Virus record (IMG/VR): IMGVR_UViG_3300044970_001522
Coordinates: 22,278 to 86,277 of that record
Reading direction: 5' to 3' (one strand)
Length of the DNA stretch: 64,000 nucleotides
Origin: a virus
Lineage: Duplodnaviria > Heunggongvirae > Uroviricota > Caudoviricetes
The notes below the pieces were generated by a model. That model was not told the origin of the DNA, made no database searches, and saw only the letters and a program-made list of their open reading frames with translations. This document shows positions 16,419 through 62,651 of the stretch, piece by piece (position 1 is the stretch's first letter; the number at the start of each line of letters is the position of its first letter). The translations under genes and the position numbers were made by a program.

Positions 16419-16424
16419 GACCAA

Positions 16425-17902: not shown

Positions 17903-17928
17903 AAATGAGTTGAGTTCCCCCAAAAACA

Positions 17929-18168: not shown

Positions 18169-18232
18169 GGGGGTAACCGGTTGCCCTGGGGCGGTTTACC
18201 CCCTTGCCCTTCCGAAGGGAAAACGGTATAGT
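18169..18232 (+). promoter_or_regulatory. double cassette TTGCCC-N17-TATAGT; conserved +1 region TTACTTCAGTCCA
   Basis: GGTAACCGGTTGCC then GGGGCGGTTTACCCCC; spacer CTTCCgaagGGAAA. Confidence 0.6.
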
Positions 18233-18398
18233 TACTTCAGTCCACTTGAGCAACCATGTTTCCCCTGAACGACCTTTCCGCACTTCACAGCATCTTCTTC
18301 ACGTTGCTTGGTCTGGTTTCATTGATTCTTGTCCTCAATCGGCCCCAAACCCGAGCTTGACTCCCTCCACAAATTCCCCCGTCTCATTACCAAACAAA

Positions 18399-18860: not shown

Positions 18861-19306
18861 ACACGATTCTCACCAGGCTTGCCGTTGATTCTATTCGTCA
18901 CGCCCTGGCCTTGAACACCGGCCCCGGCATTCCACGGCTACCACACATTCCAAACAACCTGCTGACGGACATTCTGTTCCCGAAACAGCGGGAGGAAAAT
19001 CTTTTATTCCTTTCCCTGTGGGTGATTGAGAGAGACTCACATAATCTTGAAATGAGTACTTGGCATGCGGATGCCAAGACAGGCTACACAGGAGTCGTAA
19101 CCCTTCAAAACTGTGGCGAGGTCCATTGCATTTCGGGATTCGCACAAGTTATGTGTGGTGAAAAGGGCTTCTTCATGTACCCTGGATTTGTTGGTCGCTT
19201 GCTACTTGGGGACGAAGCAGGCACGCACTTCACTGACAGCAACGCCGACGCACTTTGCTTCCTTCGCCGAGTTATTTCACGTAATTCCCCTGGTGCTAGT
19301 GCTTGA
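18857..19306 (+). CDS. paralog family A member 2
   Basis: ATGA-coupled; CGEVHCISGFAQVMCG...FLRRVISRN. Confidence 0.5.
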   Translation: MNTILTRLAVDSIRHALALNTGPGIPRLPHIPNNLLTDILFPKQREENLLFLSLWVIERDSHNLEMSTWHADAKTGYTGVVTLQNCGEVHCISGFAQVMCGEKGFFMYPGFVGRLLLGDEAGTHFTDSNADALCFLRRVISRNSPGASA

Positions 19307-19313
19307 AACAAGA

Positions 19314-19616
19314 ATGGAAACCGAAAACCTAAACCTGCGGTCTTTGTGCCGCAAGCAACAAATTGCACTTGCAGTGTTGCGGTCAATGTGCAATTCACAG
19401 ACGGGCCACCTAGTACTTGAGAATTGGGAGCCAACACTCGACGATCTCGACCGCCGTGTGGATGCAGCACTGGCTGAGGTCCCTGCCCCAGGAGACAACT
19501 TTCCTGAGAAAACCGGCTTCTTTCGCAAGGCGAAGAATGCAGTTTTCGACTTTCTGTGCGGCTTCAATCTCCATGACAATGGTGATTACGACCGGGCGAC
19601 AATCCCGCCACGTTAG
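19314..19616 (+). CDS. hypothetical protein
   Basis: ATG 8 nt after the upstream stop. Confidence 0.3.
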   Translation: METENLNLRSLCRKQQIALAVLRSMCNSQTGHLVLENWEPTLDDLDRRVDAALAEVPAPGDNFPEKTGFFRKAKNAVFDFLCGFNLHDNGDYDRATIPPR

Positions 19617-19663
19617 ACTGCGGCGTGTCTCCTGCCCACCACAAACCACAAACCTCAAACAAA

Positions 19664-20074
19664 ATGACTACCTCCACCGAAACACGTCCGAGCACTCAGG
19701 CAAGTTCACTAACCATCCCTAGTCTCCCGCACATTCCAGAAAGTTGGGACATTGTGCTTTCCCCTGAACAACAAGGAGAGAACTTACGGCACGTTGCACT
19801 CTGGATTGTGGAGCGTGACTTGGATAACTTCAATATGTTTGCGTACCACCTGAATGGGGACTACACCAATTACTGGGAGGGAATAAACACCAGTAACTGC
19901 GGTACGGTTCACTGCATCGGAGGTTTCTCACAAGTTATGTGTGGAGAACTGGGCTTCACTGTCCACCCTCGGATTGCAGGAAACAGGCTGTTAGGAGAAG
20001 AGGCCGAAAGCCACTTCTCGGACACCACTGAAGACGGTCTTGCTTTCCTTCGGGAAGTGATCGCTCGCGGTTAG
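19664..20074 (+). CDS. paralog family A member 3
   Basis: caaaATG; CGTVHCIGGFSQVMCG...FLREVIARG. Confidence 0.5.
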   Translation: MTTSTETRPSTQASSLTIPSLPHIPESWDIVLSPEQQGENLRHVALWIVERDLDNFNMFAYHLNGDYTNYWEGINTSNCGTVHCIGGFSQVMCGELGFTVHPRIAGNRLLGEEAESHFSDTTEDGLAFLREVIARG

Positions 20075-20075
20075 T

Positions 20076-20294
20076 ATGCAACGAAACTACCCCTTCAGTC
20101 GAAAACACCGTCACCCGAAGGGGTCTCGGTGGGTCGAGGTGAAAGATGGGCTGAGGCTAACCCCAAATGAGAAGCTCATTCGTAAGCTGGACAAAGAGCG
20201 GGGTTCCCCCGAAGAGGTTACGCCAATTGAAGTACAAATCTCATTGGGGTTTGTCCTCGTCGTGCTACTTTCGGTGCTTTATATATTTGGTTGA
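20076..20294 (+). CDS. small protein with C-terminal transmembrane segment
   Basis: ISLGFVLVVLLSVLYIFG C-terminus. Confidence 0.3.
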   Translation: MQRNYPFSRKHRHPKGSRWVEVKDGLRLTPNEKLIRKLDKERGSPEEVTPIEVQISLGFVLVVLLSVLYIFG

Positions 20295-20448
20295 TTTCCC
20301 CCGTTTGTCACATTAAATTCGACACAGTTTACCTCCCCATCGAAGACGCAATTTCTGCCGCCGCAGACTGGTGAGAGCTACCAGCCTGAACTCGACGGGC
20401 ACCCCCTTATCAAGGTTTTGTCGGTCGTTTCTCCGTAGCGTAGGGGCA

Positions 20449-20492
20449 GGGCGGTTTACCCCCTTGCCTTTCCGACAGGGAAGCGGTAAACT
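20449..20492 (+). promoter_or_regulatory. cassette promoter TTGCCT-N17-TAAACT
   Basis: GGGCGGTTTACCCCC; spacer TTTCCgacaGGGAAG. Confidence 0.6.
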
Positions 20493-20513
20493 AAGCTAGT
20501 TCAAAGCACTCAG

Positions 20514-20831
20514 ATGAATCTCGCTCAGCTCGAAAAGAGCATCCCCAACAGTTACTCTCTAACAATTTCAAAGTCCCTAAAGAGGGACCAGGGCGACTGG
20601 TGGGACCGCTGGACCTGGGCCTTAAACAGCAGCGACAAACGCTACGAGTCCACCTGGTTTGGCTTCTCAACTTTGCAAGAAGTTCTCGAGGATCTTTCCA
20701 CTCACCTTGAGCTTTACTCCGAGCTTTTTCAGAGCGACACGGCACACAAGGAAGAAACGGAAGAGGTGCTCACAGATGGCGAGCTCGATGAGCTTGTTAG
20801 GTGTTTGTCCTATCAGGACCCCAAACCCTGA
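20514..20831 (+). CDS. hypothetical protein
   Basis: after promoter 20449-20492. Confidence 0.3.
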   Translation: MNLAQLEKSIPNSYSLTISKSLKRDQGDWWDRWTWALNSSDKRYESTWFGFSTLQEVLEDLSTHLELYSELFQSDTAHKEETEEVLTDGELDELVRCLSYQDPKP

Positions 20832-33861: not shown

Positions 33862-35346
33862 ATGACAACGCCATCCTTTTTAAACGCACTCGAAAACGAG
33901 TTTAACCAAACCATCACCGCTAACGGTGCAAAGGCATACAAGTCCACCGAGTCTAAGTGCCTGGACCTCTTTGGAAAGATTGCAGCTTGCCGTGACAACA
34001 TCAGCGAAGCAACTCGCCTATTCAATCTTGCTTATGCCGAAAACCCTGAGACCGCAACTCGAATCTTGTTTTGGGCACGCGACATTCGTGGGGGCCAGGG
34101 AGAGCGAAAGATCTTTCGAGAAGTTTTTAAGGAACTCGTCCGCAATGATGCTGCAATTGGTGCCAGGCTAGTTAGCCTGATTCCACAGTACGGTCGCTGG
34201 GATGATGTGGTAGCCCTCGACGGTACCTTAGTTTGGGGCATCGCACTCGAAGCAATTAAGGCACAACTGAACGCCGACCTAAATACGGAAGTTGGAAAGT
34301 CAGTGTCACTTCTGGCAAAGTGGCTGCCTTCCATTAACGCTTCCAGCCAGGACTCTAAGAGGATTGGCCGAAAAATTGCCGAAGCAATGGGTTGGACCGA
34401 GAGACAGTACCGCAAGGCACTGACTGCCCTCAGGACCCAAGTCAAAATTGTTGAGCAGCCAATGTGTGCCCGTGAGTGGGAAAGCATTGACTATAGCAAG
34501 TTGCCTTCTCGGGCCGGATTCATGTATCGTAAAGCCTTTGCAAAGCGCGACGGCAACCGTTACCAATCCTACCTTGACTCAGTAGAAAAAGGTGAGGCAA
34601 AAATCAATGCCGGTACGATCTACCCGTATGAGATTGTTCACAAGTACCTTTACGGGGGCGATAGGAGTGACCAAACCCTGAACCTAATGTGGGAGGCTCT
34701 ACCCAACTACATGGAGGGAGAGCAGCTAAACGGCCTGGTAATTGCCGACGTCTCAGGATCAATGGGAAATAACGGCGGCATGCCCATGGCGGTTTCAATC
34801 TCGCTGGCGATGTACATCGCTGAGCGTAACACCGGGGCATGGAAGGATAAGTTCCTAACCTTCTCCGGAAGTCCGCAGTTGCAGTCGGTTACAGGGAGAA
34901 ACGTTGCTGAGCGTGTTCGTAACCTTAGTCAGGCCGACTGGGGTGTGAATACAGACCTGCAAGCAGTCTTCAATCTTGTGTTGGCTACCGCAACGAGGAA
35001 CCATATTCCTGAGGGGGAAATGCCGCGCAAGCTCATCATTGTCTCAGACATGCAGTTTGATTCCTGCTGCAGAAACAACTCAGTGACAAACTTTGAGGCG
35101 GTGCGAATCAAGTATGCTCAAGCAGGGTATTCCTTGCCGGAACTTGTCTTCTGGAATGTTAGCTCTAGCGGCAACGTACCTGTGAAAATGCATGATACGG
35201 GGACTTGCCTGGTCTCCGGATGCAGCCCTTCAATCCTGAAAGCTGTGCTTACTGGCGGGGTAATTACGCCTGTAGGGGTTATGCGTGACGCTGTTTACAC
35301 TGAAAGGTACGACGCTGTCGGTGCCGTATTTGCTGAAGGAGCATGA
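33862..35346 (+). CDS. vWA-domain protein with N-terminal helical domain (possible Ro60/TROVE-like or DUF2828-like)
   Basis: MIDAS motif VIADVSGSMGNNGG (DxSxS) at about 60% of the length, preceded by ~290 aa of predicted helical sequence, which is Ro60-like domain order. Confidence 0.45.
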   Translation: MTTPSFLNALENEFNQTITANGAKAYKSTESKCLDLFGKIAACRDNISEATRLFNLAYAENPETATRILFWARDIRGGQGERKIFREVFKELVRNDAAIGARLVSLIPQYGRWDDVVALDGTLVWGIALEAIKAQLNADLNTEVGKSVSLLAKWLPSINASSQDSKRIGRKIAEAMGWTERQYRKALTALRTQVKIVEQPMCAREWESIDYSKLPSRAGFMYRKAFAKRDGNRYQSYLDSVEKGEAKINAGTIYPYEIVHKYLYGGDRSDQTLNLMWEALPNYMEGEQLNGLVIADVSGSMGNNGGMPMAVSISLAMYIAERNTGAWKDKFLTFSGSPQLQSVTGRNVAERVRNLSQADWGVNTDLQAVFNLVLATATRNHIPEGEMPRKLIIVSDMQFDSCCRNNSVTNFEAVRIKYAQAGYSLPELVFWNVSSSGNVPVKMHDTGTCLVSGCSPSILKAVLTGGVITPVGVMRDAVYTERYDAVGAVFAEGA

Positions 35347-41785: not shown

Positions 41786-41857
41786 GCCCTGGTAGCTCAG
41801 TGGAAGAGCACTGTCCTTCTAAGACACCGGTCGTGGGTTCGAATCCCTCTCAGGGCG
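41786..41857 (+). tRNA. tRNA-Arg (anticodon TCT), slightly irregular stems
   Basis: acceptor GCCCTGG/TCAGGGC, D arm GCTC-AGTGGAA-GAGC, anticodon loop CTTCTAA, T loop TTCGAAT; no encoded CCA. Confidence 0.55.
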
Positions 41858-41904
41858 TAGGTTGCCTTTGCAGCCACACTAAACAACAACAGCAACAATA
41901 CAAA

Positions 41905-42069
41905 ATGGCAAATCTTTCTCTAGTTGATCGTGCCGCACGAATTGGCGTCGAAAACCCCGACGGCGCAAAGCTCCTCCTAAGACTCAGCGAGGCAAGCACC
42001 AGCACTGAAGTTCAAAGTGCTCTAGACGAATTTGACTTGGCGGTCGGAGTTCAAACTCCCTCTGTCTGA
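41905..42069 (+). CDS. small protein sharing C-terminal motif with 42443
   Basis: TEVQSALDEFDLAVGV versus SEVQSALDELNLDVGL. Confidence 0.3.
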   Translation: MANLSLVDRAARIGVENPDGAKLLLRLSEASTSTEVQSALDEFDLAVGVQTPSV

Positions 42070-42111
42070 GCTTTACCTTGGGTTCCACCTCACACGGTGG
42101 TTCCCTATCCT

Positions 42112-42200
42112 GGGCGTGTGGTGTACGGTGCACAGGGACCATTATAAAGTCCTCTCCGGCAGATTACCGGCTAGTTAGGGTTCGACTCCCTACACGCCTA
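42112..42200 (+). tRNA. type II (long variable arm) tRNA-like gene with 9-nt anticodon loop; isotype ambiguous
   Basis: acceptor GGGCGTG/CACGCCT, T arm TAGGG-TTCGACT-CCCTA, variable stem-loop CCGG-CAGATTA-CCGG, anticodon stem GGGAC/GTCCT enclosing CATTATAAA. Confidence 0.4.
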
Positions 42201-42290
42201 CTTAGTTTCAAGTCCTCGAAAACTCGTTAAAGAACACACCCACAGGCCATATCCGGTGAACGACACAGGAGTGGCCCACCACGGTGACAA

Positions 42291-42375
42291 GGAAGAGTGG
42301 CTGAGCGGCCGAAAGCAGCAGCTTCGAACACTGTAGAGGGTTAAACCTCCGGGGGTTCAAATCCCCCCTCTTCCG
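42291..42375 (+). tRNA. tRNA-Ser (anticodon CGA), type II
   Basis: acceptor GGAAGAG/CTCTTCC; D arm GCT-GAGCGGCCGAA-AGC nearly identical to bacterial tRNA-Ser; loop TTCGAAC; variable arm GAGG-GTTAAA-CCTC; T arm GGGGG-TTCAAAT-CCCCC. Confidence 0.55.
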
Positions 42376-42784: not shown

Positions 42785-42966
42785 GCGAGACTGACTGGCT
42801 TTTGCCTCTGAGGCAAGCATCCTCTTTAGCGGAGGTGCGTGCACTTTCCTTGGAAAGTCGAGTTAGGGAGATGAGGCGAACTAAGCTAAAACTGAGGCGG
42901 AGGAGATTAGAGCTACAGAAAGAAGAGTCTCAGATTCTGCGGGCTATACTTAAAACCCTGTGAAAA

Positions 42967-43010
42967 GGGCGGTTTCCACCCTTGCCTTCCCCAATCAAAA
43001 GAGCTATAAT
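42967..43010 (+). promoter_or_regulatory. cassette promoter TTGCCT-N17-TATAAT
   Basis: GGGCGGTTTCCACCC. Confidence 0.55.
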
Positions 43011-43040
43011 GGGGGTGTAAGCGAGCTTAGTTCTCCGAGT

Positions 43041-43565
43041 ATGAAGCGTGCCATCAAAATTGACGGCAAGGTTACCGTCCCTAACTTCACTATTGAAAAA
43101 CTCCTGCGGTCGGTGTCAGAAGACGCAGCGGGTACCCGAAGGTCTGACCCACGGTTGTGGACTCTGGGGGATGTTGGATCTAGGTCAGTTCCAGACTGGC
43201 TTCGCTCCACTTTGCAAGAGGCACTTTTGCTTCTAAATCGTGCAGAACAGCAATACAGGTTTCCATCCCCGACTGACAATATGCGCCGCGAGGGCGCCAC
43301 GGTTGTGTACGGGAAAGGGTCCGTAGGTTCGCACGAAGACTACCAGATGTCAGGTTTGTCTCTCCTGGTTTTTCTCGGGGGGCACACCCCTGACGACGAA
43401 GCTCCCTACTGCAGCCAGCTCATATCTGAAGGCGAATTTTACGCTGGCGGAAAAATGACATTGATGAGGCCAGGGGACGCGCTAGTTTTTGACGATAGGG
43501 AAACGCACTCTTGGATGGCCAACGGCTGCTGGTTCTTTCTCGTTAGCCCCCTCAACAAAGTTTAG
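43041..43565 (+). CDS. 2OG-Fe(II) oxygenase superfamily protein (P4H-like)
   Basis: GSHEDY (HxD) ... ~60 aa ... DDRETHSW (distal His), with GGKMTLMRPGDALVF typical of the jelly-roll core. Confidence 0.4.
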   Translation: MKRAIKIDGKVTVPNFTIEKLLRSVSEDAAGTRRSDPRLWTLGDVGSRSVPDWLRSTLQEALLLLNRAEQQYRFPSPTDNMRREGATVVYGKGSVGSHEDYQMSGLSLLVFLGGHTPDDEAPYCSQLISEGEFYAGGKMTLMRPGDALVFDDRETHSWMANGCWFFLVSPLNKV

Positions 43566-45157: not shown

Positions 45158-45631
45158 ATGGAAAACATACCCGAAGCACCCGAAGCATACGTGATGGTCG
45201 GAGCCCCTGGGTCCGGAAAGTCGACTCATGTATCAAAGCTGCTAAGTCTTCACCCAGATGCCGTTGTAATTTCCGGCGATGAAATCCGCGCTGAGCTCTA
45301 CGGAAACGCGGACATTCTAGGAAATTACGTAGAAATCCACGACCGCATGCTTGAGATTCTGGAGGAGAGTGTAGGTCGGACTATAGTTATGGATGGTACC
45401 CACTACAAGGCAGCTTACCGCAAGGAAGCAATTGCTACGCTGAACTCGTACGGTTACGATAAGGTTACTGCAGTAGTCATTGAAAAGCCCCTCACCGTTT
45501 GCCTACACCAGAATGCTTCTCGCGAGCGCAGGGTTCCGGAAGAAGTGATTGAGCGCATGCACGCCTCCTTACAAGCTTCCCTCAAGAATATCACCAACGA
45601 ACCCTTCCACCGTATTGACTTTGTATACTGA
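45158..45631 (+). CDS. P-loop polynucleotide-kinase-like protein (predicted leaderless)
   Basis: YVMVGAPGSGKST Walker A at the N-terminus as in Pnk kinase domains; ATG 7 nt after -10 TATAAT. Confidence 0.5.
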   Translation: MENIPEAPEAYVMVGAPGSGKSTHVSKLLSLHPDAVVISGDEIRAELYGNADILGNYVEIHDRMLEILEESVGRTIVMDGTHYKAAYRKEAIATLNSYGYDKVTAVVIEKPLTVCLHQNASRERRVPEEVIERMHASLQASLKNITNEPFHRIDFVY

Positions 45632-47653: not shown

Positions 47654-47659
47654 AAATGT

Positions 47660-47818
47660 ATGGAAAACGACTCAGTCCGCTCCAAACTTGGACCCCGCCA
47701 AAAGGGTCGGAAACGAAAGGGCAAGACCAAGCCCCAAGCTCTTCGCCAAGCGAGAGCTCGCCGCGCCAGCCTCCTTCAAAAGTTGACCCCTCAGTCCCAC
47801 CCGCAAGCAAAGCAATGA
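47660..47818 (+). CDS. small highly basic protein (predicted leaderless)
   Basis: ATG 7 nt after the -10; KLGPRQKGRKRKGKTKPQALRQARARR; stop overlaps the next ATG (ATGA). Confidence 0.35.
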   Translation: MENDSVRSKLGPRQKGRKRKGKTKPQALRQARARRASLLQKLTPQSHPQAKQ

Positions 47819-48093
47819 CCTGCACCCCTGCCACTGAGAAGAGTGAAACTAATGCTTCTGCCCTTGCGTCTGAGTACAACGGGGTTTGGGCGTCTGTTCA
47901 CGATGCCCGAAAGAAGCTTATCCAAGCGAACTGCCCCTCTCGCGGTACTAGGGATGAGGAAGCATGGGAGTTATTCTGCGAGGAACGGGAAGCGGCTCTT
48001 GAAAAGCTCAGGCAAGTAGAGGACTACCTCATGGACTTGGCTTTCCAATACTCATGCGAAGCTTCTCGCGATCTTTCTGTGGAGCATGTGTAG
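47815..48093 (+). CDS. hypothetical protein
   Basis: ATGA-coupled to 47660 gene; the longer track ORF from 47656 in this frame overlaps the promoter. Confidence 0.35.
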   Translation: MTCTPATEKSETNASALASEYNGVWASVHDARKKLIQANCPSRGTRDEEAWELFCEEREAALEKLRQVEDYLMDLAFQYSCEASRDLSVEHV

Positions 48094-50217: not shown

Positions 50218-50385
50218 AGCCCCTGACGCTTCTGTCACAGGGGCAGAGGCCAAGCTCGAGACTTTAGACCCCACGACCCCGTGGTACGAGTTTCTCTCCT
50301 ACTGTGAAGCTTGTCGGAGCTTAAACGTGAAAGCGTCTGTTGGTCGCTTCACCCGTTACCAAAACTATATTCGAACTATTTCGCT

Positions 50386-51165
50386 ATGAGTTACACAGGA
50401 CAGTTAATAACCTTTGAAGGTCTTGACGGCTGCGGAAAAACAACTCAGCTTAAGGCTGTTTTCGAGTGGCTTGTTACCAGCGGTCGACTACCATGGGGAG
50501 TTAAGGTGGTTACAACTCGAGAGCCAGGATGTTTACCCGGTGTGCGAGACTTGCTTAAGAACCCTAAGGCTGCGATCACACCGAAAGCCGAACTTTTACT
50601 GCTCATGGCCGACCGGGCTCAGCACGTTGCAACAGTAATAATGCCGGAGCTAGAAAAGGGCAACTGGGTGTTATGCGACCGATTTTACGCAAGCACCTTA
50701 GCCTATCAAGGGTGGGGACGAGGTTTGGGATCTGAAGCGGTAGAGAAAGCCCACGAACTTGCCTGCGGAGTCTTGTACCCTGACTTAGAACTGTTTTTCG
50801 ACGTTCCCGTTGATGAGTCTATGAGACGGCTCTCAAGGCGAGAAAACGACGGGCTGACTGTCCGAGACAGATTTGAGCGGTCAGAACGACCTTTTTTCGA
50901 CCGTTTGCTTACAGGGTTTCAAACCCCTAACGAACAACTGGGACTGAAATGTTACCCCGTGGTTACAATCGACGGGTGTCAAACGGTTGACGAGGTTACT
51001 CAGGAATGCATACGACAAGTGTCCAAGCTTTTACCACGTGAGGAGAACTTCACGAATGTGCCACCGTGCCGAGCAAAAGATCCTGAGTTTTGGTACGACA
51101 CTTCTAAAGAAACTTACAAAGTTCGGCTTGAGCGGGAGACCTCATGGAGTCAGCCACGATCTTGA
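50386..51165 (+). CDS. tmk: thymidylate kinase
   Basis: GQLITFEGLDGCGKTTQ P-loop and Tmk-like downstream sequence; start could also be 50311. Confidence 0.65.
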   Translation: MSYTGQLITFEGLDGCGKTTQLKAVFEWLVTSGRLPWGVKVVTTREPGCLPGVRDLLKNPKAAITPKAELLLLMADRAQHVATVIMPELEKGNWVLCDRFYASTLAYQGWGRGLGSEAVEKAHELACGVLYPDLELFFDVPVDESMRRLSRRENDGLTVRDRFERSERPFFDRLLTGFQTPNEQLGLKCYPVVTIDGCQTVDEVTQECIRQVSKLLPREENFTNVPPCRAKDPEFWYDTSKETYKVRLERETSWSQPRS

Positions 51166-52766: not shown

Positions 52767-53372
52767 ATGGAACTAAAATCGACCCTTTCTGAGTCGTTCT
52801 TTCACCGGTTCTGCCCGGATCCCACGGTGATGTACGATCTTGGAGAGATTTACGCAGAATTTAACGCCCGCTACTTCAACGGGGACTTACCAGTTCTTCC
52901 CTGTAAGACTCGGACAGACGAAAACGGAGAAACTTGGTCGCGATACGACACCCTAAAGTGGGATGGTCGCATGGGTCGCAGAATTCTTGGCACATACAAA
53001 ACGTCTGCACGACGTGGGTTCGGAACAATTCGCCTCTCTCGCGTAATTGCAGGTGACCCTGTAAAAACAAGAAGCATTCTCTTGCACGAGATGCTTCACA
53101 AGTACCTTGATCTTGAGTGTCGAGACGACGGCATTAAGGGCCACGGTGAAAACTTCGTGAAGGAGGCAAAGAGAATCAACGAACTTTGTGAAAGAACTGG
53201 TGTTAAGCACCGCATTTACTTCTACAAAGACGAGATTACACAGAGTCAACCATTCGTCATACCTGAGCTTTTGGACGACAAAATCCACTGCAGCACAGAT
53301 CTAGACATTGCCCTAAACATGCAGTCTGTGATGAGGGCCGCGTTCTCACAAAAATTCGAGTACTTTCAGTGA
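52767..53372 (+). CDS. SprT-like zinc metalloprotease-domain protein (predicted leaderless)
   Basis: ILLHEMLHKY HExxH motif; ATG 7 nt after -10. Confidence 0.4.
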   Translation: MELKSTLSESFFHRFCPDPTVMYDLGEIYAEFNARYFNGDLPVLPCKTRTDENGETWSRYDTLKWDGRMGRRILGTYKTSARRGFGTIRLSRVIAGDPVKTRSILLHEMLHKYLDLECRDDGIKGHGENFVKEAKRINELCERTGVKHRIYFYKDEITQSQPFVIPELLDDKIHCSTDLDIALNMQSVMRAAFSQKFEYFQ

Positions 53373-53872: not shown

Positions 53873-55360
53873 ATGACATTTGTGACAGAAAACTTAACGA
53901 AGAGTTCTAAAGCCGCTTCAACCGGAAATGAAAAATGCAACGATAACTGTTCTGTAAGTGAAGCCGTTGTCTGTGATTTAAGCTCTCGCCAAGAGCCCCG
54001 CCGAATCGACCTCGACAAGCTATACGAGTGTGACCCGAAAGACTACATTGGCTATTTCGCCGACGAAACCTCTTACGACAACCTTATTCAAGAAGACTGC
54101 GACGTTTATGTGGGCGGAGTGAAAGTTGTTGCCTTTCGTAAGGCACTTTTTCCGAAGCTGCGCGATGGTTCGAAAGGTAGCCCGGAAACTTGGAAATACT
54201 TCCGCTGGGCAGCAAGAGACTTGTACTCAGACCAACGAGGCCTAGTTGCTGGTAGAGAACTAACTACCCAACTCGAGATAAGGGTAACCAACGGTATTCT
54301 AAACTTCTTCAAGAAGGCGATGGCCGGTCAAGTCACTGACTTGGAAGAGGCACTGAAAATTGCTTCTCTCTCCCCCGACATGTCAAAGCTCACTGTCCGA
54401 GTGAATGATGTTAAAAAGGACTTCCCAGAAATTGAGAAAGCTTTAGAATCTATCGAGAAGGAACTTCGCAAGAAAACGCTGAGCGAAGAAAGAAAGGTAG
54501 AGCTGAAGGAAGCGAAGGGTAGAGAACTTGCGAAGTGGTTCCCGACGTGGCTATCCAAGACTTGGAGTGTATCTAAGGACAAGGTTTCTGAGGCGAAACG
54601 TGCCGACGACAGGTATGTGGGAAAACAATACCGTTCAAACAAGTGCTATTCCAACGTGATTGGTGCTTTTGATAGGGGTGCACGTAACCCTTACGGTCGT
54701 TTGACCGCAACAACTGTAAAAGACTATGAGGGGTTCGTAAGCCACACGGATATTTATCAGACAGCTTGTTCCGCACTCAAAGAGACCCTAAACACTCCGG
54801 AAAACCCTCGGTGGGACCGCCTTCACGAACGGTTCAGTAACGTGAAAGACCCGCACTATAACCTCTTCGGTACGGTGTTCACTGCCCTTACGTTAAACTG
54901 GAACTTCCGTTGTGCGATGCACTACGACGGTAATAACTGCGAAGGTGGTATTGCCGTTCTTACTGCAATTACTCAAGGGGAATATGACGGCCATTACCTT
55001 GTGTTCCCTGAAATTCGTTGCGCTTTCGACCTTCGTGATGGGGACTTTATTGCCGGTGACAATCAGGGACTGATTCACGGTAACACTGCAATGATTCCGA
55101 AGACGCCTGACGCTGAACGAGTTTCGTTCGTTTTCTATTCACGAGAGCGCATGACCGCTCTTGACGATATGGAGTGTGAGGAGTGCCGCCGAGATTTCAT
55201 GCGATACGCAGCAGACAATCACAAGGAGTATGGAAAGGGTCACAAGACCTGGAATGGTGTTTGGAGCGGAATGTGGAAATCACCGGAATGGATGACGTAT
55301 AAAGCCGAACACGGCTTAGAACGTTGCTCAAATACTAACTATTGGGGCACCGAGAATTAA
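53873..55360 (+). CDS. TET/JBP-family 2OG-Fe(II) dioxygenase-like protein
   Basis: AMHYDG (HxD) ... 52 aa ... LIHGNT (distal His) ... RVSF 14 aa later (2OG Arg), spacing as in JBP/TET catalytic cores; ~300-aa N-terminal extension. Confidence 0.4.
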   Translation: MTFVTENLTKSSKAASTGNEKCNDNCSVSEAVVCDLSSRQEPRRIDLDKLYECDPKDYIGYFADETSYDNLIQEDCDVYVGGVKVVAFRKALFPKLRDGSKGSPETWKYFRWAARDLYSDQRGLVAGRELTTQLEIRVTNGILNFFKKAMAGQVTDLEEALKIASLSPDMSKLTVRVNDVKKDFPEIEKALESIEKELRKKTLSEERKVELKEAKGRELAKWFPTWLSKTWSVSKDKVSEAKRADDRYVGKQYRSNKCYSNVIGAFDRGARNPYGRLTATTVKDYEGFVSHTDIYQTACSALKETLNTPENPRWDRLHERFSNVKDPHYNLFGTVFTALTLNWNFRCAMHYDGNNCEGGIAVLTAITQGEYDGHYLVFPEIRCAFDLRDGDFIAGDNQGLIHGNTAMIPKTPDAERVSFVFYSRERMTALDDMECEECRRDFMRYAADNHKEYGKGHKTWNGVWSGMWKSPEWMTYKAEHGLERCSNTNYWGTEN

Positions 55361-55744
55361 CCCTGAAGCCGCCGAAGCGGCAGTTAACGAACAAAACACA
55401 GCATTACTAACAATGGACACAAACAAACAGCTTAACGGTGGCGATGCGGAGCGGCAAGTTGCCTCGGAGAGTATTGAACCCATTGAAGCAACAACAACCA
55501 TTACGGTGGAACTCCCGGTAAGCTTCGCTGAGGCTTTCCGGGCACTTGCTCAACGAGAGGGCTTGTCGGAGGGTGACCTTATTGTACGATCGCTGGGGCT
55601 CTACTCCGTTGCATCTCAAGCCGAGAGTGAAGGGTACGGACTAACGTTTACTCGCATCGAAGGAACCAACGACCTGACCGCCAAGGAAGCAATTCGCATT
55701 GAAGACGAACCTGCCTCAAATTTGTTCATTCCGGGTAAGAGGTG

Positions 55745-55789
55745 AGACGGTTTCCCGCCCTTGCTTCTACAGCGTAGACACGGTAAAAT
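55745..55789 (+). promoter_or_regulatory. cassette promoter TTGCTT-N17-TAAAAT
   Basis: GACGGTTTCCCGCCC; spacer TCTACagcGTAGA. Confidence 0.55.
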
Positions 55790-55812
55790 AACCAAAGACA
55801 AACGAGCCACAG

Positions 55813-56406
55813 ATGGAAATCTACTTCAGCACAGACGTTGAGACCGACGGACCGATCCCCGGACCTAACAGCATGCTTTCGCTTGGGTCGGCTGCGTTTT
55901 CCCCTGACGGAAAACTCCTGGGCACCTTCTCTGTGAACCTAGAGACCCTCCCCGGAGCCGACCCGGACCCCACTACCCAAGCGTGGTGGGAGTCTCACCC
56001 GGAGGCCTACAGAGCAACCAGAGAGAAGGTTTTACCTGCCGACCGAGCCATGCTCGCCTTTTCTCAATGGGTCAGTGCTACAGCAAGCTCGTTCTCTCAA
56101 GCGAATGTTCGAAAAGTTTCTCCAGTGTTCGTGGGTTTTCCTGCAGGGTTTGACTTTCTTTTCGTGTATTGGTACCTTATTCGGTTCACTGGACAGTCCC
56201 CATTTAGCTTCTCGGCGCTTGACGGTAAGACCTATGCTATGGCCTTGCTCAAAAGAGGATACCGGGAGTCCACCAAACGGAACTACCCGAAAGAGTGGTT
56301 TCCCCTCGAAAACAAGCATACTCACATCGCTGTAGAGGATGCTATTGAACAAGGTCGTATTTTCTGCAATATGCTTCGATCCAATCTTGACTCTACGTGT
56401 CAATGA
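55813..56406 (+). CDS. DnaQ-like 3'-5' exonuclease (DEDDh)
   Basis: FSTDVETDG (Exo I), C-terminal HIAVEDAIE (Exo III H-x4-D). Confidence 0.55.
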
Positions 56407-56591
56407 CTAACAAAGTTAAAGATTACTGCGAAAAACTTAGCTTGTCCCTGAAGTTAAGGGGAGAGGGAAACGAGGACGCGGAGGAGGCCTTGCTCGACGA
56501 GCTTGACCTTCTGTGGCTGAAGTTGTCGAGAGAAGAGGCCCAGTGGGTTAATGCCAATATACTGTCGTTGTTTCCTAACTAATTACCCACC

Positions 56592-57356
56592 GTGATGAAA
56601 AATCCTACTTTCCTACTCCAGTCCGGAGGACCACTACAAATCGAAAAGGTTGCGTGTAGTTTCTCCTGTTACCCTGTCCAATATTGCTCGTTTTATGATC
56701 TGTCGAAGTTAGACCCTAAAGGTTTCATGGCTACATTGATTCCTGTGGGATCGGTGGAATTTGTTCAAGCTTACAGTGAACACGTAGGTATTGTGCTACC
56801 TGAGGACTTTTCCTACGGGTGTAATGCAGAACTGAAAAAGTACCTTATGAGGTCCGTTCGACAAGGAGTGTACGGTGAAGCAACCTTGGAAGACTTTGTG
56901 AAGCCAACCGCAATAAAGTTGTTTACCGGGGACATCAAGAGAGAGCTCGAACTGAAGATACCTGGACTAATTTCTGATAACACTTCAGTGTGGATCTCTC
57001 AGGCTGTGCCCTTTGAGTCGGAATTTCGGTTCTACATTCACGACTTCATTGGGGGTGGTAAAATTCAGGGGTGGTCGCGGTATGACGACAAGCCCGTAAG
57101 AAACCCCGAACCCGACTTCGGCCTGATTGAAGAGATTATGGGTGTGCTAGAGGCAAATATTGCGCCTGGTGCTTACACGATTGACATCGGCTGGAGGCCT
57201 GACCTGAATCGGTACTGCCTAGTTGAACTTAACGATGCGTGGTCGCTTGGGTTCTACGAAAATAGCGACCCGCAATCGAACCCACCAACTCGACAGCAGT
57301 ACGCTGACATGCTGGTGTCTCGCTGGAGACAAATTATCTTTTGCAACCTAGTGTAA
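56592..57356 (+). CDS. ATP-grasp family enzyme
   Basis: C-terminal YTIDIGWRPDLNRYCLVELNDAWS (ATP-grasp E-x-N Mg site) and upstream FVKP lysine region. Confidence 0.4.
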   Translation: MMKNPTFLLQSGGPLQIEKVACSFSCYPVQYCSFYDLSKLDPKGFMATLIPVGSVEFVQAYSEHVGIVLPEDFSYGCNAELKKYLMRSVRQGVYGEATLEDFVKPTAIKLFTGDIKRELELKIPGLISDNTSVWISQAVPFESEFRFYIHDFIGGGKIQGWSRYDDKPVRNPEPDFGLIEEIMGVLEANIAPGAYTIDIGWRPDLNRYCLVELNDAWSLGFYENSDPQSNPPTRQQYADMLVSRWRQIIFCNLV

Positions 57357-57405
57357 CCACTGGATAACACAGTCGGAGATAAGAGGACGCGGCAAACGTC
57401 TACTC

Positions 57406-58272
57406 TTGACGCTCCGACAACAGTCACATCAACTGCACTCAAATATGGACTATCAGATTGCCATCCCAACTTACGGAAGGCCCGATGGAGTGAAGAAACT
57501 CACTCTGAATTACCTTGAAAAAACAGACATTAATTGTTCCCACGTGACTTTATTCGTGGCAAACGATGAAGAGAAGGAAATTTACCAGAGTTCAAACCCT
57601 ACATACAATATCGTTGTTGGTGAAAAGGGTTTGACAAAACAACGTCACTTCATCTCTAACTTTTACGACAAAGGGACTCCTGTTTTTTCGTTCGACGACG
57701 ACGTTAGCGCCGTTGAGGAACTTGAGCTCTTAAAAGACCTTGAGGGGACTCAGAAGCCACTTGACCACCCGTGTCGCCTGAAAACCGTGGTGGAACTCTC
57801 GGATCTTATCGATCGCGGCTTCCGAATGTCCAAGCGGCGCAATATTGGCCTGTTCGGTTTCTATGCCGTTCGCAACAAGGGTTTTCTTCACCCAAAGGTG
57901 ACTGTGGGGCTCAAGTTCATTATGGGCCACGCATTTGGTTTCTACGCAGGCGACCCAGCCTTTGATCTAATCGCTGAGTACAGTATGAAGGACGACTACT
58001 TCTTGTCTCTGTACCACACTGTTAATGGAAACGGGACACTGCGATTCGACAACATCTGTGTGAAAGCTAAACAGCACACAGGCGGTGGCGGAACCTGCGA
58101 AGACATGGAGCGAAAGCTTCAGATTAATAACCAAACCGTAGAGAAACTTTGTGCTGAGTTTCCGGACCTCGCGAGTCCAAAGAGCCGTCGAACAAAGGAT
58201 GAGTGGCTTTCCCGGTACTCTGAAATCCGCCTCAAAACAATCACAAACGAGACAATCTCAGTGCTTAACTGA
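57406..58272 (+). CDS. GT-A fold (family 2-like) glycosyltransferase
   Basis: IAIPTYGRPD (cf. GT2 IPTYNR) and FSFDDDV DxD motif. Confidence 0.4.
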   Translation: MTLRQQSHQLHSNMDYQIAIPTYGRPDGVKKLTLNYLEKTDINCSHVTLFVANDEEKEIYQSSNPTYNIVVGEKGLTKQRHFISNFYDKGTPVFSFDDDVSAVEELELLKDLEGTQKPLDHPCRLKTVVELSDLIDRGFRMSKRRNIGLFGFYAVRNKGFLHPKVTVGLKFIMGHAFGFYAGDPAFDLIAEYSMKDDYFLSLYHTVNGNGTLRFDNICVKAKQHTGGGGTCEDMERKLQINNQTVEKLCAEFPDLASPKSRRTKDEWLSRYSEIRLKTITNETISVLN

Positions 58273-58278
58273 GCACCA

Positions 58279-58322
58279 AGGCGGTTTTCCGCCCTTTACT
58301 GTAAGCTCCTCTCCCCTATGTT
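58279..58322 (+). promoter_or_regulatory. cassette promoter variant (TTTACT ... TATGTT)
   Basis: GGCGGTTTTCCGCCC. Confidence 0.35.
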
Positions 58323-58343
58323 TAGAACAGCTTCCGGCTACCA

Positions 58344-58700
58344 ATGATTCCCGACCCAAAGAAAACCATCGTTTTCGATGTTGACGACACCATCCTCACA
58401 ACAGAAAACCGCGATTACGAAAACTCTCTACCGAAGATGGAAGTAATTGTGGGTATGCGAGCAATGAAGGACGCAGGGTGGACGATCATCTTGAATACAG
58501 CGAGGGGAATGGGTCGTTCAGACGGTGACATCGAAAGTGTGAGGCAAGAAGTTATCGAGGAAATCGAAAAGTTCTGCACTAAATACGGTGTACCCTACGA
58601 TACCATCTTGGTTGGAAAACCTTGGGCGGCATACTATGTAGACGACAAAGCAATGACTCCCGCTCAGTTCTCCGCAAAATACAAGGAAATCGAACAATGA
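58344..58700 (+). CDS. HAD-superfamily phosphatase
   Basis: IVFDVDDTILT motif I. Confidence 0.5.
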   Translation: MIPDPKKTIVFDVDDTILTTENRDYENSLPKMEVIVGMRAMKDAGWTIILNTARGMGRSDGDIESVRQEVIEEIEKFCTKYGVPYDTILVGKPWAAYYVDDKAMTPAQFSAKYKEIEQ

Positions 58701-59410
58701 AGAACGCACTCATTCTTGCTGCCGGTCGTAGTACTCGGTTTGGCCGAAACAAACTTGAGGAAAAGTTTGACGGGGTGTCACTTCCTCTCCTGGCTGCCAA
58801 GTTCGCTCTTGAAAACGGTGCGGAAAACATCTATCTGACGCTCTCGCGCTCGGCGATTAAGACCGACGGGACTCGCATTTACCACCCTGTTCTAGATGAA
58901 GTTTCCAAGATTTGCGACCCGATTGTTCGTTTTCAGAGTGAGGAAACTTACGGACCAGGCGCTGCGATTACCACGTGGGCAGGCGTGATCAATGGTCCGT
59001 TCACTGTTCTGTTTGGGGATAATTACTACCATGGAACGATCCCCCCTGCCGAACGAGTTTTACTTGGCTCTGACCTTGAGAACTCAGTGTGGTTTTCATA
59101 TCTTCGTAAGTCACTCAATCCACGAAATCTTCAACTCGCCACAGTAATCGACAACTATGTGATTGAAAAACCACACGGACAACTCGAAGGCCGTTACTTC
59201 TGTGGTTTTGCCCGTTTCCCTGCGGGATACCTTGACACCATTGGTGACCTTCGCAAGAGCGACCGTGGCGAGGTTGAAATTACGGATATGATAAACATGG
59301 CGGAGCATCGTCAAGCAGTATCACTTTCTTCCATGGGTGTGATATGGGGAGACTTAACTTACGAGGCGGATTGCGCTCGCATTCGGGAGCTTGTTAGTGA
59401 AGGGAAGTAG
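58697..59410 (+). CDS. sugar-phosphate/alcohol-phosphate nucleotidyltransferase (NTP_transferase fold)
   Basis: LILAAGRSTRFG signature (cf. GlmU/IspD/LicC G-x-G-T-R); ATGA-coupled to HAD gene. Confidence 0.5.
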   Translation: MKNALILAAGRSTRFGRNKLEEKFDGVSLPLLAAKFALENGAENIYLTLSRSAIKTDGTRIYHPVLDEVSKICDPIVRFQSEETYGPGAAITTWAGVINGPFTVLFGDNYYHGTIPPAERVLLGSDLENSVWFSYLRKSLNPRNLQLATVIDNYVIEKPHGQLEGRYFCGFARFPAGYLDTIGDLRKSDRGEVEITDMINMAEHRQAVSLSSMGVIWGDLTYEADCARIRELVSEGK

Positions 59411-60143
59411 TGGGGCCACCCTGGATTTCTCTGGGGATTTCATACGGAAAAAGTGTAAGGATGCCGGTGAGCAGTGCGAGTGGTTTCGCATTGCTTCTCG
59501 GTATACCTTGGCACCAAGTGTTCGCCTCCCGCAAACAATCTGTGTGTCGGACTCAGACTACGACATTGAGTTTATTGAAGGTGTTTGTGGAACACAAATT
59601 GAATCTACACGTTTGATTGACACTTTGGTAGACCAGGTCTTCCTTTGGTCTAAGCTCCCTGCGTCAAGACACACGGACTGGGGGTCTTACAAAGAGCGTC
59701 TTCACTTAGAGCACGTTTCTCTGACAGACAGCGAGATAGTTCGTCGAACTTTCGATTTCCTCGACGAAATAGTTCCACTACCTTCCTCCTTCTCGCATGG
59801 TGACCTAACTCTTGAAAACATCATTGTAGAAAATAACGGGGGAATAGTTCTGATCGACCCGAATTTCAAGACGAATTTGTTTCAGTCTTACGTTCTCGAC
59901 TTGGGTAAATTGCTACAGTCTGTCCACAGCGATTACCACCGGTTGTTCAACTCACACCCAGGATGTGACCCTGCGCCTCTGTGCGCCCACTTGAGACAAC
60001 GGCTAGGCAAACCCTTATGGACTCAGGCGCTGGCCGCTGAGATATCGCACGTGATCCGCCTGCGCAAGTACCGCCCTTCCGCCCAGTGGCCGACGGTTGA
60101 CCGGCTGTTGGGGCAGCTGCTGGCTGAAGCCCATGGGTGTTAA
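59391..60143 (+). CDS. APH/choline-kinase-family small-molecule kinase
   Basis: HGDLTLENIIVENNGGIVLIDPNFKT (Brenner HGDxxxxN + DxN/D); non-ATG start overlapping upstream stop. Confidence 0.45.
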   Translation: MLVKGSSGATLDFSGDFIRKKCKDAGEQCEWFRIASRYTLAPSVRLPQTICVSDSDYDIEFIEGVCGTQIESTRLIDTLVDQVFLWSKLPASRHTDWGSYKERLHLEHVSLTDSEIVRRTFDFLDEIVPLPSSFSHGDLTLENIIVENNGGIVLIDPNFKTNLFQSYVLDLGKLLQSVHSDYHRLFNSHPGCDPAPLCAHLRQRLGKPLWTQALAAEISHVIRLRKYRPSAQWPTVDRLLGQLLAEAHGC

Positions 60144-61195: not shown

Positions 61196-61741
61196 ATGGC
61201 AACTATTTACAAACCACCGGCACAGCTACCCCCTTTCTCGTCGAGGCTCAGTGTATTTCTTGCAGGTTCAATAGAAATGGGCTCTGCACCCGACTGGCAA
61301 GCTGACCTCGAACGTAGTCTTGCTGACCTTGACATTGACATTTACAATCCGCGACGCGACGATTGGGACCCAACTTGGGTTCAAAGCGCCGATAACCCGG
61401 TGTTTCGAGAGCAGGTTGAGTGGGAGCTTGATGCCCTAGAGATGGCTGGCATGGTTGTCATGTATCTGGCACCGGGTACCATTAGTCCTGTTTCTTTGCT
61501 CGAACTCGGCTTCGTCACCGGACTCGCTCTCTTTCTCAATGTCAGAAACACGGTTGTGTGTTGCCCAGAGGGGTTCCACCGTAAGGGCAACGTTGACATT
61601 GTCTGTAACCGATATGGGATTCCACAGGTTTCAAGTCTAGAGGGACTTGAACTGGCCATACGAAAAGAAAGTGCAAGGGTACAGAAACTGAAGTCTTGGG
61701 GGAATCGTGGGAGCATTGAGACGAGAAACCCTGGAGAGTAA
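61196..61741 (+). CDS. nucleoside 2-deoxyribosyltransferase-like protein
   Basis: VFLAGSI...W...VMYLAPGTISPVSLLELGFVTG resembles the NDT/DNPH1 fold signature (xAGxx...GTxxExG). Confidence 0.45.
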   Translation: MATIYKPPAQLPPFSSRLSVFLAGSIEMGSAPDWQADLERSLADLDIDIYNPRRDDWDPTWVQSADNPVFREQVEWELDALEMAGMVVMYLAPGTISPVSLLELGFVTGLALFLNVRNTVVCCPEGFHRKGNVDIVCNRYGIPQVSSLEGLELAIRKESARVQKLKSWGNRGSIETRNPGE

Positions 61742-62189: not shown

Positions 62190-62651
62190 ATGAAAGGACA
62201 ACTCCTCAATAAAATGCTGGTACTGGCGACCAACGCCCACGCCGATCAGTACGACAAGGGTGGCAACCCTTACATTTTGCATCCGCTCAAGGTGATGCAT
62301 TACCTGAAAACAAACGACGTTGAACTTCAGTGCATTGCGCTCGGCCACGACATCATTGAAGACACCAAGGTCACCTACGCAGATTTACGTGATCAGGGAT
62401 TCACTGCCCGAATTATCGAAGGCATTCGATGCCTAACGAAAGCACCAGGGGAGACCTACGAAGAGTATAAGTTCCGTGTCTTCTCAAACGAAGACGCCAT
62501 GAGAGTGAAACTCTGTGACTTAAGGCACAATACTGACGTTCGGCGTCTGAAAGGTGTCACCGAGAACGACCTTAAGCGAATGGCTAAATACCACATGTTT
62601 TACATGGAAATTCAAGCCCGGTTGCAAAATTCCGACGAAGGTGATTCTTGA
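62190..62651 (+). CDS. HD-domain (p)ppGpp hydrolase-like small alarmone hydrolase
   Basis: GGNPYILHPLKVMHYL...ALGHDIIEDT matches the RelA/SpoT/Mesh1 HD hydrolase motifs. Confidence 0.6.
   Translation: MKGQLLNKMLVLATNAHADQYDKGGNPYILHPLKVMHYLKTNDVELQCIALGHDIIEDTKVTYADLRDQGFTARIIEGIRCLTKAPGETYEEYKFRVFSNEDAMRVKLCDLRHNTDVRRLKGVTENDLKRMAKYHMFYMEIQARLQNSDEGDS

Follow-up and report, generated by a model that had tools for sequence, protein, structure and literature searches.

A cluster of plus-strand genes at positions 53873-60143 of a 64,000-nucleotide stretch of phage DNA (hereafter the window; positions 22,278 to 86,277 of IMG/VR record IMGVR_UViG_3300044970_001522) is predicted to encode a DNA hypermodification pathway. 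The source is an uncultured freshwater phage that is kin to cyanophage S-CBWM1. The cluster is built around a dioxygenase of the TET/JBP family (TET for short) and includes a TET-associated glycosyltransferase (TAGT) followed by a contiguous HAD phosphatase, nucleotidyltransferase (NT) and APH-fold kinase, referred to below as the HAD-NT-APH cassette. In the pathway that we favor, thymine in DNA is probably oxidized to 5-hydroxymethyluracil (5hmU) after replication and then glycosylated from a nucleoside diphosphate (NDP) sugar made by the phage itself. The enzyme class of the dioxygenase is evident from profile and fold comparisons, while its substrate base and all other steps of the pathway are those that we infer from gene content and context. 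Published work describes a class of phage pathways that act after replication and combine 5-methylpyrimidine dioxygenases (5mYOX) with glycosyltransferases (GTs); the cluster falls in this class, within which it is a rare and uncharacterized combination of individually known parts (Burke, 2021; Pyle et al., 2024; O'Toole et al., 2026).

The TET/JBP Dioxygenase

The 495-residue protein encoded at 53873-55360 (plus strand) is a TET/JBP-fold Fe(II)/2-oxoglutarate dioxygenase, a 5-methylpyrimidine dioxygenase predicted to convert thymine to 5hmU in DNA. The Pfam family Tet_JBP (PF12851) matches residues 325-425 with an E-value of 1.6e-13 and 50.7 bits against a cutoff of 34.9, and the same family was found in all 70 homologs that were aligned. 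H350, D352, H402, and R424 are invariant in this alignment. A preliminary description of this DNA, made from the letters and translations, had read the spacing of TET and JBP base hydroxylases in an HYD motif, a histidine 52 residues later, and an arginine 14 residues after that. These residues are indeed H350-D352, H402, and R416, the last within AERVSFVFY, and the profile match above its cutoff supports the assignment. R416 is part of an RVSFVFY motif in which a few homologs carry another residue at its position; by eye, the motif aligns with TRLSLVFY of TET2, which we take to be the 2-oxoglutarate arginine motif of that enzyme. The fold leads to the same family. An AlphaFold2 (AF2) model computed from the homolog alignment reached a pLDDT of 93.4, and its top 26 Foldseek matches in the PDB are CcTet, CMD1, NgTET1, and TET2 (E-values 3e-10 to 1e-5), with FTO and AlkB ranking below all TET-family structures. 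The comparison with the TET/JBP clade that had been suggested earlier thus returns TET structures before all others.

The 495 residues include a long conserved N-terminal region. Homologs of the dioxygenase are labeled 'SNF2 DNA repair protein' in GenBank; this label was rejected, as no SNF2 domain was detected. No ParBc or ParB_N match was obtained in the window, and the ParB protein of another cassette-bearing locus described below (L103; loci fetched for comparison are given as L numbers), used as a seed, found no match in the window or in the TET-family loci. If the enzyme is a thymine dioxygenase, it therefore belongs to the ParB-less kind. Relatives that carry an amino-acid-type module downstream (L002-L006, L010, and L020) have two tandem TET/JBP paralogs with about 50% mutual identity (for example, L003 10001-12924), the second of which is broken into two open reading frames (ORFs) in L010 and L020. 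Only the first paralog is present in the window and in S-CBWM1.

A Conserved Order of Genes

That the dioxygenase stands at the center of a hypermodification cluster was the chief proposal of the preliminary description, and conserved gene order joins profile and fold in supporting it. In a nucleotide search, S-CBWM1 was the sole known phage matched (66% over 21% of the region). This Synechococcus phage is the only isolate with a similar locus, in which the TET protein is 58% identical and the genes run in the order SprT-like protease, small ORF, TET, TAGT, HAD, NT, and kinase; the S-CBWM1 cluster has neither an exonuclease nor an ATP-grasp gene between TET and TAGT. The order TET-TAGT-HAD-NT-APH is thus retained despite protein identities of just 43-62%, which indicates that the arrangement is selected rather than accidental. 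Several phage contigs from freshwater metagenomes, up to 190-277 kb long, also carry the whole cluster in near-identical form. In the window, the genes at 52.7-61.8 kb all lie on the plus strand and are densely packed, and a promoter and terminator scan of the region gave no information on operon boundaries.

Thymine or 5-Methylcytosine

Whether the modified base is cytosine or thymine had been left open in the preliminary description. The evidence favors thymine over 5-methylcytosine (5mC) as the substrate of the dioxygenase, and it comes from gene context. No DNA_methylase (C5), N6_N4_Mtase, or Thymidylat_synt family turned up when practically all ORFs of at least about 90 residues across the 64 kb were scanned with Pfam. 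A search seeded with the C5-methyltransferase (C5-MT) of locus L101 found no homolog in the window, nor in the TET-family loci that were fetched, and no methyltransferase is annotated in positions 1-117 kb of S-CBWM1. The latter phage has thyX, dUTPase, and dCMP deaminase, which amount to an ordinary supply of dTTP. According to O'Toole et al. (2026; PMC13229309), phage 5mYOX enzymes without an adjoining C5-MT oxidize thymine, and most of the mined phage 5mYOX probably make 5hmU.

The relatives of the dioxygenase point in the same direction. Orthologs with 68-83% identity share the synteny of the window, often with tandem paralogs, and are followed by GATase_6, a 318-residue protein of unknown function, ADDT (PF18724), and Ploopntkinase3. 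Such genes accompany the orthologs in L002-L006, L010, L012, L015, and L020 and are absent from the window; most of the approximately 65 more distant TET-family loci likewise contain GATase_6, ADDT, and/or Ploopntkinase3. These families, counted in the table of the O'Toole preprint as GATase, amino-acid:DNA transferase, and P-loop kinase, are known machinery of thymine hypermodification (O'Toole et al., 2026; PMC13229309). The most telling case is L010, whose TET protein is 82% identical to that of the window. Its module GATase6-hyp318-hyp318-ADDT-PLK3 (15506-20618) lies between the gene for an ATP-grasp ligase of the R2K clade and that for 'hyp172', which is exactly the slot taken by TAGT-HAD-NT-APH in the window (57406-60143). 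Two interchangeable modules that occupy one slot beside the same dioxygenase should therefore both use the same TET product, namely 5hmU.

The Glycosyltransferase

The gene at 57406-58272 (plus strand) encodes a TAGT-family glycosyltransferase of the GT-A fold that is predicted to glycosylate 5-hydroxymethylpyrimidines in DNA. It matches PF20691 ('TET-Associated GlycosylTransferase') with an E-value of 4.3e-10 and 40.3 bits against a cutoff of 27.5 and also matches phrog_842, and its IPTYGR and DDD (D97-D98-D99) motifs are invariant among four homologs. The preliminary description had recognized the gene and both motifs, but its label 'GT2-like' has to be replaced: there is no Pfam GT2 match, and the family is TAGT, whose GT-A fold is related to that of JGT. 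The Pfam family presumably also includes JGT itself, the base J glucosyltransferase of trypanosomes. Phage GT-A DNA glycosyltransferases have been found to match a Trypanosoma cruzi JGT homolog in structure (Pyle et al., bioRxiv 10.1101/2023.12.21.572611).

TET and TAGT are directly adjacent in S-CBWM1 and in two further loci, L082 and L085. In the latter two, the TET protein is only 30% identical and no HAD-NT-APH cassette accompanies the pair, which would fit a cassette that provides a donor those phages need not make. In the T4-like Caulobacter phage Cr30 (L105; 54208-60681 of its record), a TET/JBP homolog lies within about 3 kb of a partly TAGT-like gene, and a gene for inositol-1-phosphate synthase, some 5 kb away from the TET gene, hints at yet another donor.

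A Proposed Donor-Sugar Cassette

The cassette begins with a small HAD phosphatase of 118 residues (58344-58700, plus strand) of the 1xpj/'capsule biosynthesis phosphatase'/AfhF type, which carries a DVDDT motif. It matches TIGR01689 (5.6e-25, under the curated cutoff at 87.7 versus 162 bits) and PDB entry 1xpj (4.1e-21), and it shares 40% identity (E-value 1e-20) with the RB69-type phosphatase of Mosigvirus; homologs occur in 395 phage records. Its predicted role is to strip a sugar bisphosphate or sugar phosphate of the phosphate at the non-anomeric position. Its PHROG label, 'phosphoheptose isomerase', was rejected in view of the TIGR01689 and 1xpj matches, which identify a HAD phosphatase. 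The same mislabel is attached to AfhF-type HAD proteins in many phage records (e.g., L087 4974-5360 and L088 4992-5315) and has been propagated into phrog_1238.

The second gene (58694-59410, plus strand) encodes a putative sugar-1-phosphate nucleotidyltransferase with a GxGTR-type motif, ILAAGRSTRFG, that is predicted to serve in NDP-sugar donor synthesis. Its profile matches are modest: NTP_transf_3 at 1.6e-5, slightly under cutoff; Arch_glmU at 4e-10, far under the curated cutoff (39 versus 292 bits); and rmlA_long at 1.4e-7, also far under the curated cutoff. Structure matches to RmlA are weak, and similarity to AfhE is confined to the N-terminal motif. In the contexts examined, the gene invariably lies between the HAD and kinase genes. 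The third gene (59391-60143, plus strand) encodes a small-molecule kinase of the APH/ELK fold with the motifs HGDLTLEN and IDPN, predicted to be an anomeric sugar kinase. It matches Pfam APH above cutoff (1.4e-5), and K20, H136, D138, N143, and D156 are invariant in 45 homologs. Its AF2 model (pLDDT 94.6) finds fructosamine-3-kinase, APH, and maltokinase in Foldseek, generic matches that do not identify the sugar. Its similarity to the kinase portion of the bifunctional RB69-type enzyme is distant, and the match is only a partial one (hhalign probability 79.5%; BLASTP E-value 4e-5).

The HAD, NT, and kinase homologs (E-values 1e-36 to 1e-76) also stand side by side elsewhere, in three contexts. 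In L103, their neighbors are a ParB_N protein and a short Tet_JBP protein; in L101 and L102, they are a ThyA-like protein and a C5-MT; and the third context is the S-CBWM1 cluster. Every context of the cassette thus has pyrimidine-C5 enzymes, and the best interpretation of the cassette is therefore that it is portable and supplies donor sugar for the glycosylation of DNA. This agrees with the suggestion of the preliminary description that a kinase and a nucleotidyltransferase would provide an activated donor, to which the HAD phosphatase can now be added. The donor sugar may be arabinose or another pentose, which is a low-confidence guess. No family of sugar isomerase (SIS) was found in the window, the Mosigvirus isomerase used as a seed matched no locus, and no isomerase adjoins the cassette in L101-L103.

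The clusters of L101 (3618-10439) and L102 (4079-10386), which are of another, uncharacterized kind, consist of the ThyA-like protein (207 residues), the C5 DNA methylase, and the cassette, together with a 398-residue protein without a family match, a GNAT protein, and a dCMP deaminase. Locus L103 (2688-9547 of a contig of about 33 kb) encodes Amidoligase_2, GATase_6, ParB_N, the short Tet_JBP protein (278 residues), the cassette, and a 270-residue protein, and may combine sugar and amino-acid chemistry. The 270-residue protein, downstream of the cassette, is weakly TAGT-like (hhalign 9.7%, E-value 0.003) and was not counted as a glycosyltransferase.

A Proposed Pathway and Its Alternatives

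In the pathway that we propose, the phage genome would be replicated with ordinary dTTP, to which the phage dTMP kinase and, in S-CBWM1, ThyX, dUTPase, and dCMP deaminase would contribute. The dioxygenase at 53873-55360 would then hydroxylate the C5-methyl group of thymine in DNA to give 5hmU, and the TAGT enzyme (57406-58272) would transfer a sugar from an NDP-sugar to the new hydroxyl, leaving a glycosyl-oxymethyl-uracil that resembles base J. For the donor, the APH-fold kinase and the HAD phosphatase would turn a non-anomerically phosphorylated sugar into a sugar-1-phosphate, which the nucleotidyltransferase would activate to the NDP-sugar. This last part is proposed because of its analogy to phage AfhE/AfhF, which serve UDP-arabinofuranose synthesis, and to bacterial MupP/AmgK/MurU. 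The bacterial enzymes follow the same logic, leading from a sugar phosphate through a sugar-1-phosphate to an NDP-sugar. The benefit of the modification is likely the shielding of phage DNA from host nucleases. A more specific expectation, offered tentatively and with less than even confidence, is that virion DNA of the freshwater lineage and of S-CBWM1 contains an undescribed 5-(glycosyl-oxymethyl)uracil with a sugar other than glucose, such as a pentofuranose supplied by the cassette, and that near-identical phages switch between sugar and amino-acid modification of 5hmU by a single cassette swap. Such a base, formed post-replicatively, would be the first of the base J kind in a virus.

Several observations weigh against this scheme. 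The pathway in this phage and in S-CBWM1 is a prediction from their genes. R416 is not kept across all members of the dioxygenase family, the kinase and nucleotidyltransferase are merely distantly related, or just analogous, to AfhE, and no isomerase was found, hence arabinose is not specifically supported. The phage GT-A/TAGT-like enzymes characterized to date act on 5-hydroxymethylcytosine (5hmC). Furthermore, the window covers 64 kb of a genome of perhaps about 190 kb, roughly one third, so that a C5-MT could lie elsewhere; the cassette adjoins a C5-MT in L101 and L102; and some phage thymine dioxygenases oxidize 5mC too. These last points, along with the characterized phage 5mYOX+GT pathways that yield sugar-modified cytosines, lend some weight to a different substrate, in which the dioxygenase would act on 5mC methylated by a C5-MT outside the window or by a host methylase, and the product would be glycosylated 5hmC. 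We consider this unlikely in view of the lack of any C5-MT in the 64 kb, of any homolog of one in the fetched TET-family loci, and of any annotated one in S-CBWM1 (1-117 kb), and in view of the P-loop kinase and amino-acid:DNA transferase module, which takes the exact same slot in the relative with the 82% identical TET and is linked to the dioxygenase across the TET family.

The remaining alternatives concern the extent of the pathway. It could be longer and include the ATP-grasp ligase of the R2K clade, perhaps also the DEDD exonuclease, as integral parts; the ligase might, for instance, attach an amino acid either to the sugar or to a carboxylated base and so form a composite modification. 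In relatives of either type, sugar or amino-acid, R2K does separate TET from the module, often together with the exonuclease, other 5mYOX clusters contain ATP-dependent amidoligases (such as the Amidoligase_2 of L103), and phage thymine dioxygenases are capable of iterative oxidation to the carboxyl state. However, S-CBWM1 retains TET-TAGT-HAD-NT-APH without either gene, R2K is found in none of the more distant TET loci, and R2K homologs occur beside psbA in phage S-CRM01 and in jumbo phages with no TET nearby. A review of jumbo phages reports the phages it covers to be without TET/JBP and the R2K clade to be predicted to modify proteins, and a longer pathway of this kind is accordingly rather improbable. 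It is also conceivable that the glycosyltransferase and the cassette are auxiliary, serving the glycosylation of a virion protein or the remodeling of host surface polysaccharide, and that the dioxygenase alone makes 5hmU or oxidized derivatives. The name 'capsule biosynthesis phosphatase' of the HAD family would agree with this, as would the cyanomyoviruses in which a HAD homolog lies beside heptose-type sugar genes and tail-fiber genes; moreover, that the glycosyltransferase acts on DNA is a prediction. The chance of this is slim, given that the glycosyltransferase matches the TET-associated TAGT family above its cutoff, that TET and TAGT adjoin each other again in L082 and L085, where the TET protein is 30% identical, and that the cassette adjoins pyrimidine-C5 modifying enzymes in four of four independent contexts. 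In addition, the HAD homolog of Mosigvirus adjoins an arabinose-5-phosphate isomerase, a bifunctional nucleotidyltransferase-kinase, and a thyA homolog, in an RB69/DLP3 region described as a DNA arabinosylation pathway (PMC13326640).

Comparison With Known Systems

The oxidation of thymine followed by glycosylation of 5hmU most closely recalls the base J pathway of kinetoplastids. In both, a TET/JBP dioxygenase (JBP1 or JBP2 in kinetoplastids) converts thymine to 5hmU, or is predicted to do so, and a GT-A enzyme (JGT) glycosylates the product. The differences are that the present system belongs to a phage rather than a eukaryote, that no J-DNA-binding or SNF2 domain is found in it, and that its donor apparently comes from a dedicated phage cassette instead of host UDP-glucose. 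The C5-MT+5mYOX+GT pathways of phages (Burke, 2021, PMC8256090; Pyle et al., 2024) are similar in that a 5mYOX acts post-replicatively and is followed by a JGT-like DNA glycosyltransferase of the GT-A fold. Additional genes for sugar modification, APH phosphotransferases among them, are noted in some of those clusters (Pyle et al., 2024, Cell Rep; bioRxiv 10.1101/2023.12.21.572611). Unlike these glycosylated-5hmC pathways, the window has no C5-MT that could be found, a dioxygenase lineage that is tied to thymine machinery, and a complete HAD-NT-kinase donor cassette. In the phage 5mYOX+GT literature compared here, sugar-modified cytosines have been demonstrated and no phage glycosyl-5hmU.

The thymine dioxygenases of 5mYOX clades C1 and C2 (O'Toole et al., 2026; PMC13229309) share with the present enzyme the superfamily, the lack of an adjoining C5-MT, and, in close relatives of this phage, the company of GATase, P-loop kinase, and amino-acid:DNA transferase. 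In contrast to them, no ParB partner is present here, the protein is 495 residues long with its conserved N-terminal region, and TAGT with a sugar-activation module takes the place of the amino-acid module. Thymidine hypermodification through 5-HMUDK and aGPT-Pplase/AADT enzymes probably passes through the same 5hmU intermediate, and its genes occupy the identical genomic slot in relatives with an 82% identical TET. Neither the P-loop 5hmU DNA kinase (PF18751) nor the amino-acid:DNA transferase (PF18724) was found in the window by Pfam, and the APH-fold kinase is of another fold and is accompanied by a nucleotidyltransferase, features that suggest the activation of a sugar rather than the phosphorylation of DNA. 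The T4-type glucosyl-hmC pathway differs in its pre-replicative dCMP hydroxymethylase, a member of the thymidylate synthase family that was not found in the window.

The closest parallel to the donor cassette is the UDP-arabinose module of phages RB69, DLP3, and HY126 (PMC13326640), which shares the HAD of the 1xpj family and the succession of kinase, phosphatase, nucleotidyltransferase, and DNA glycosyltransferase. There, an APH-like kinase domain phosphorylates arabinofuranose-5-phosphate at C1, a phosphatase takes off the 5-phosphate, and a nucleotidyltransferase domain completes the synthesis of UDP-arabinofuranose, the donor for DNA arabinosylation; HY126 AfhF dephosphorylates Araf-1,5-P2, and DLP3 gp81 and RB69 gp51 are its counterparts (PMC13326640). 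The two modules are unlike in that the kinase and nucleotidyltransferase are separate genes here and one bifunctional AfhE there, and that the arabinose-5-phosphate isomerase of those phages was not found here. Their acceptor also differs, being 5-hydroxycytosine made before replication by a ThyA homolog, and their transferases are GT-B enzymes.

Compared with characterized 5mYOX+GT members, the cluster is thus distinguished by the absence of any C5-MT or ParB that could be found and by a full donor cassette whose phosphatase is shared with arabinosyl-5-hydroxycytosine phages. Among the approximately 23,000 5mYOX contigs in the table of the O'Toole preprint, APH is counted in 0.3%, HAD in 0.6%, NTP-transferases in 4%, and GTs in 31%; accessory domains are counted singly in that table, and the co-occurrence of all three is not reported. 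The preliminary description held that the gene combination matches no described pathway exactly and may encode a new base modification. By its TAGT match and by the domains of this survey, the cluster does fall within the 5mYOX(TET)+GT class, and it is nevertheless plausible that the final product is a base modification not yet described.

If the prediction holds, chemistry of the base J type, known from trypanosomes, also exists in a virus that makes the donor sugar itself, and one more hypermodified thymine would be added to the natural DNA bases. The exchange of a sugar module for an amino-acid module at one slot, seen between near-identical phages, is a clear instance in nature of DNA hypermodification evolving by modules as host defenses exert pressure. 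The cultured relative S-CBWM1 makes this chemistry directly testable, and the dioxygenase, the TAGT enzyme, and the donor cassette are candidates for the enzymatic labeling of thymine or 5hmU in DNA.

Neighboring Genes

The DEDD exonuclease and ATP-grasp genes, like the three cassette genes, had been named in the preliminary description, and all five were found on the plus strand at or close to the positions given for them; the motifs that it had quoted are present. The DEDD 3'-5' exonuclease (55813-56406, plus strand) is Rv2179c-like (Pfam 1.5e-6, phrog_255) and is present in L005-L010, L016, L020, and L021 and absent from S-CBWM1. The ATP-grasp ligase of the R2K clade (56592-57356, plus strand) matches R2K_3 at 3.9e-20 (73.1 bits) and R2K_2 at 6.4e-19 (68.7 bits), against cutoffs of about 26. 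R2K, usually with the exonuclease, lies between TET and the downstream module in relatives of the sugar type and of the amino-acid type, as would be expected of ancestral synteny followed by a swap of the downstream cassette. The preliminary description had listed both genes with the cluster and had given the ATP-grasp ligase a possible part in decorating hydroxymethylated bases. The two are probably bystanders, lineage-syntenic neighbors that were not counted as members of the pathway because they are absent from S-CBWM1 and from the distant TET loci and because R2K is found elsewhere without TET. A single-sequence search of viral contigs for distant R2K loci returned close relatives only. 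Between the dioxygenase and the exonuclease lies a gene for a small protein of 110 residues (55413-55745, plus strand) with a weak ribbon-helix-helix signal (RHH_1, E-value 0.05 only), which is lineage-specific and kept in close relatives, including the amino-acid-type L010 and L020.

Three genes farther out, assigned earlier as dTMP kinase, deoxyribosyltransferase-like, and SprT-like, have the Pfam matches expected of them. The SprT-like metalloprotease (52767-53372, plus strand; 1.4e-9) is encoded directly upstream of the dioxygenase and holds this position in S-CBWM1 and in L002-L021, including L018 with a TET identity of 41%; it is absent from distant loci. A connection with DNA-protein crosslinks arising from over-oxidized bases is only a thought, and since nothing shows a role for the protease, it is regarded as a conserved neighbor and not placed in the pathway. 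The thymidylate kinase (50311-51165, plus strand; Thymidylate_kin, 8.5e-32) is peripheral and syntenic in relatives, and is consistent with a supply of canonical dTTP ahead of modification at the polymer level. The nucleoside 2-deoxyribosyltransferase-like protein (61196-61741, plus strand; PF15891, Nuc_deoxyri_tr2, 9e-32; phrog_30579), also peripheral, recurs downstream in L007, L009, and L021, all of them near-identical relatives. An HD-domain phosphohydrolase is encoded at 62190-62651 (phrog_990, 7e-60), and these two proteins might act on modified nucleotide pools. A second 2-oxoglutarate oxygenase had been proposed at 43041. This assignment was not confirmed: the ORF at 42960-43565 has an HED...H motif, yet no Pfam, PHROG, or PDB sequence match.

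Other Features of the Window

Elsewhere in the window, a PRPP-synthetase-like protein (404 residues) is followed by an NAPRTase/NAMPT-like protein (504 residues) at 2107-4832, and together with a cytidylyltransferase-like ORF found elsewhere in the window, they look like a phage NAD+ salvage set. Genes resembling those of RNA repair comprise a T4 Rnl1-type RNA ligase, a TROVE-like DUF2828/DUF7788 protein, an AAA_33 kinase, and a HAD_PNKP phosphatase, with coordinates 11333-12442, 33862-35346, and probably 45158-45631 and 47656-48093; those of the kinase and the phosphatase were derived from synteny with L002 and L003 alone. Three tRNA genes (Arg-TCT, Ile-TAT, and Ser-CGA) lie at 41786-42375 of the window, and S-CBWM1 has a large tRNA array right downstream of its version of the cluster.

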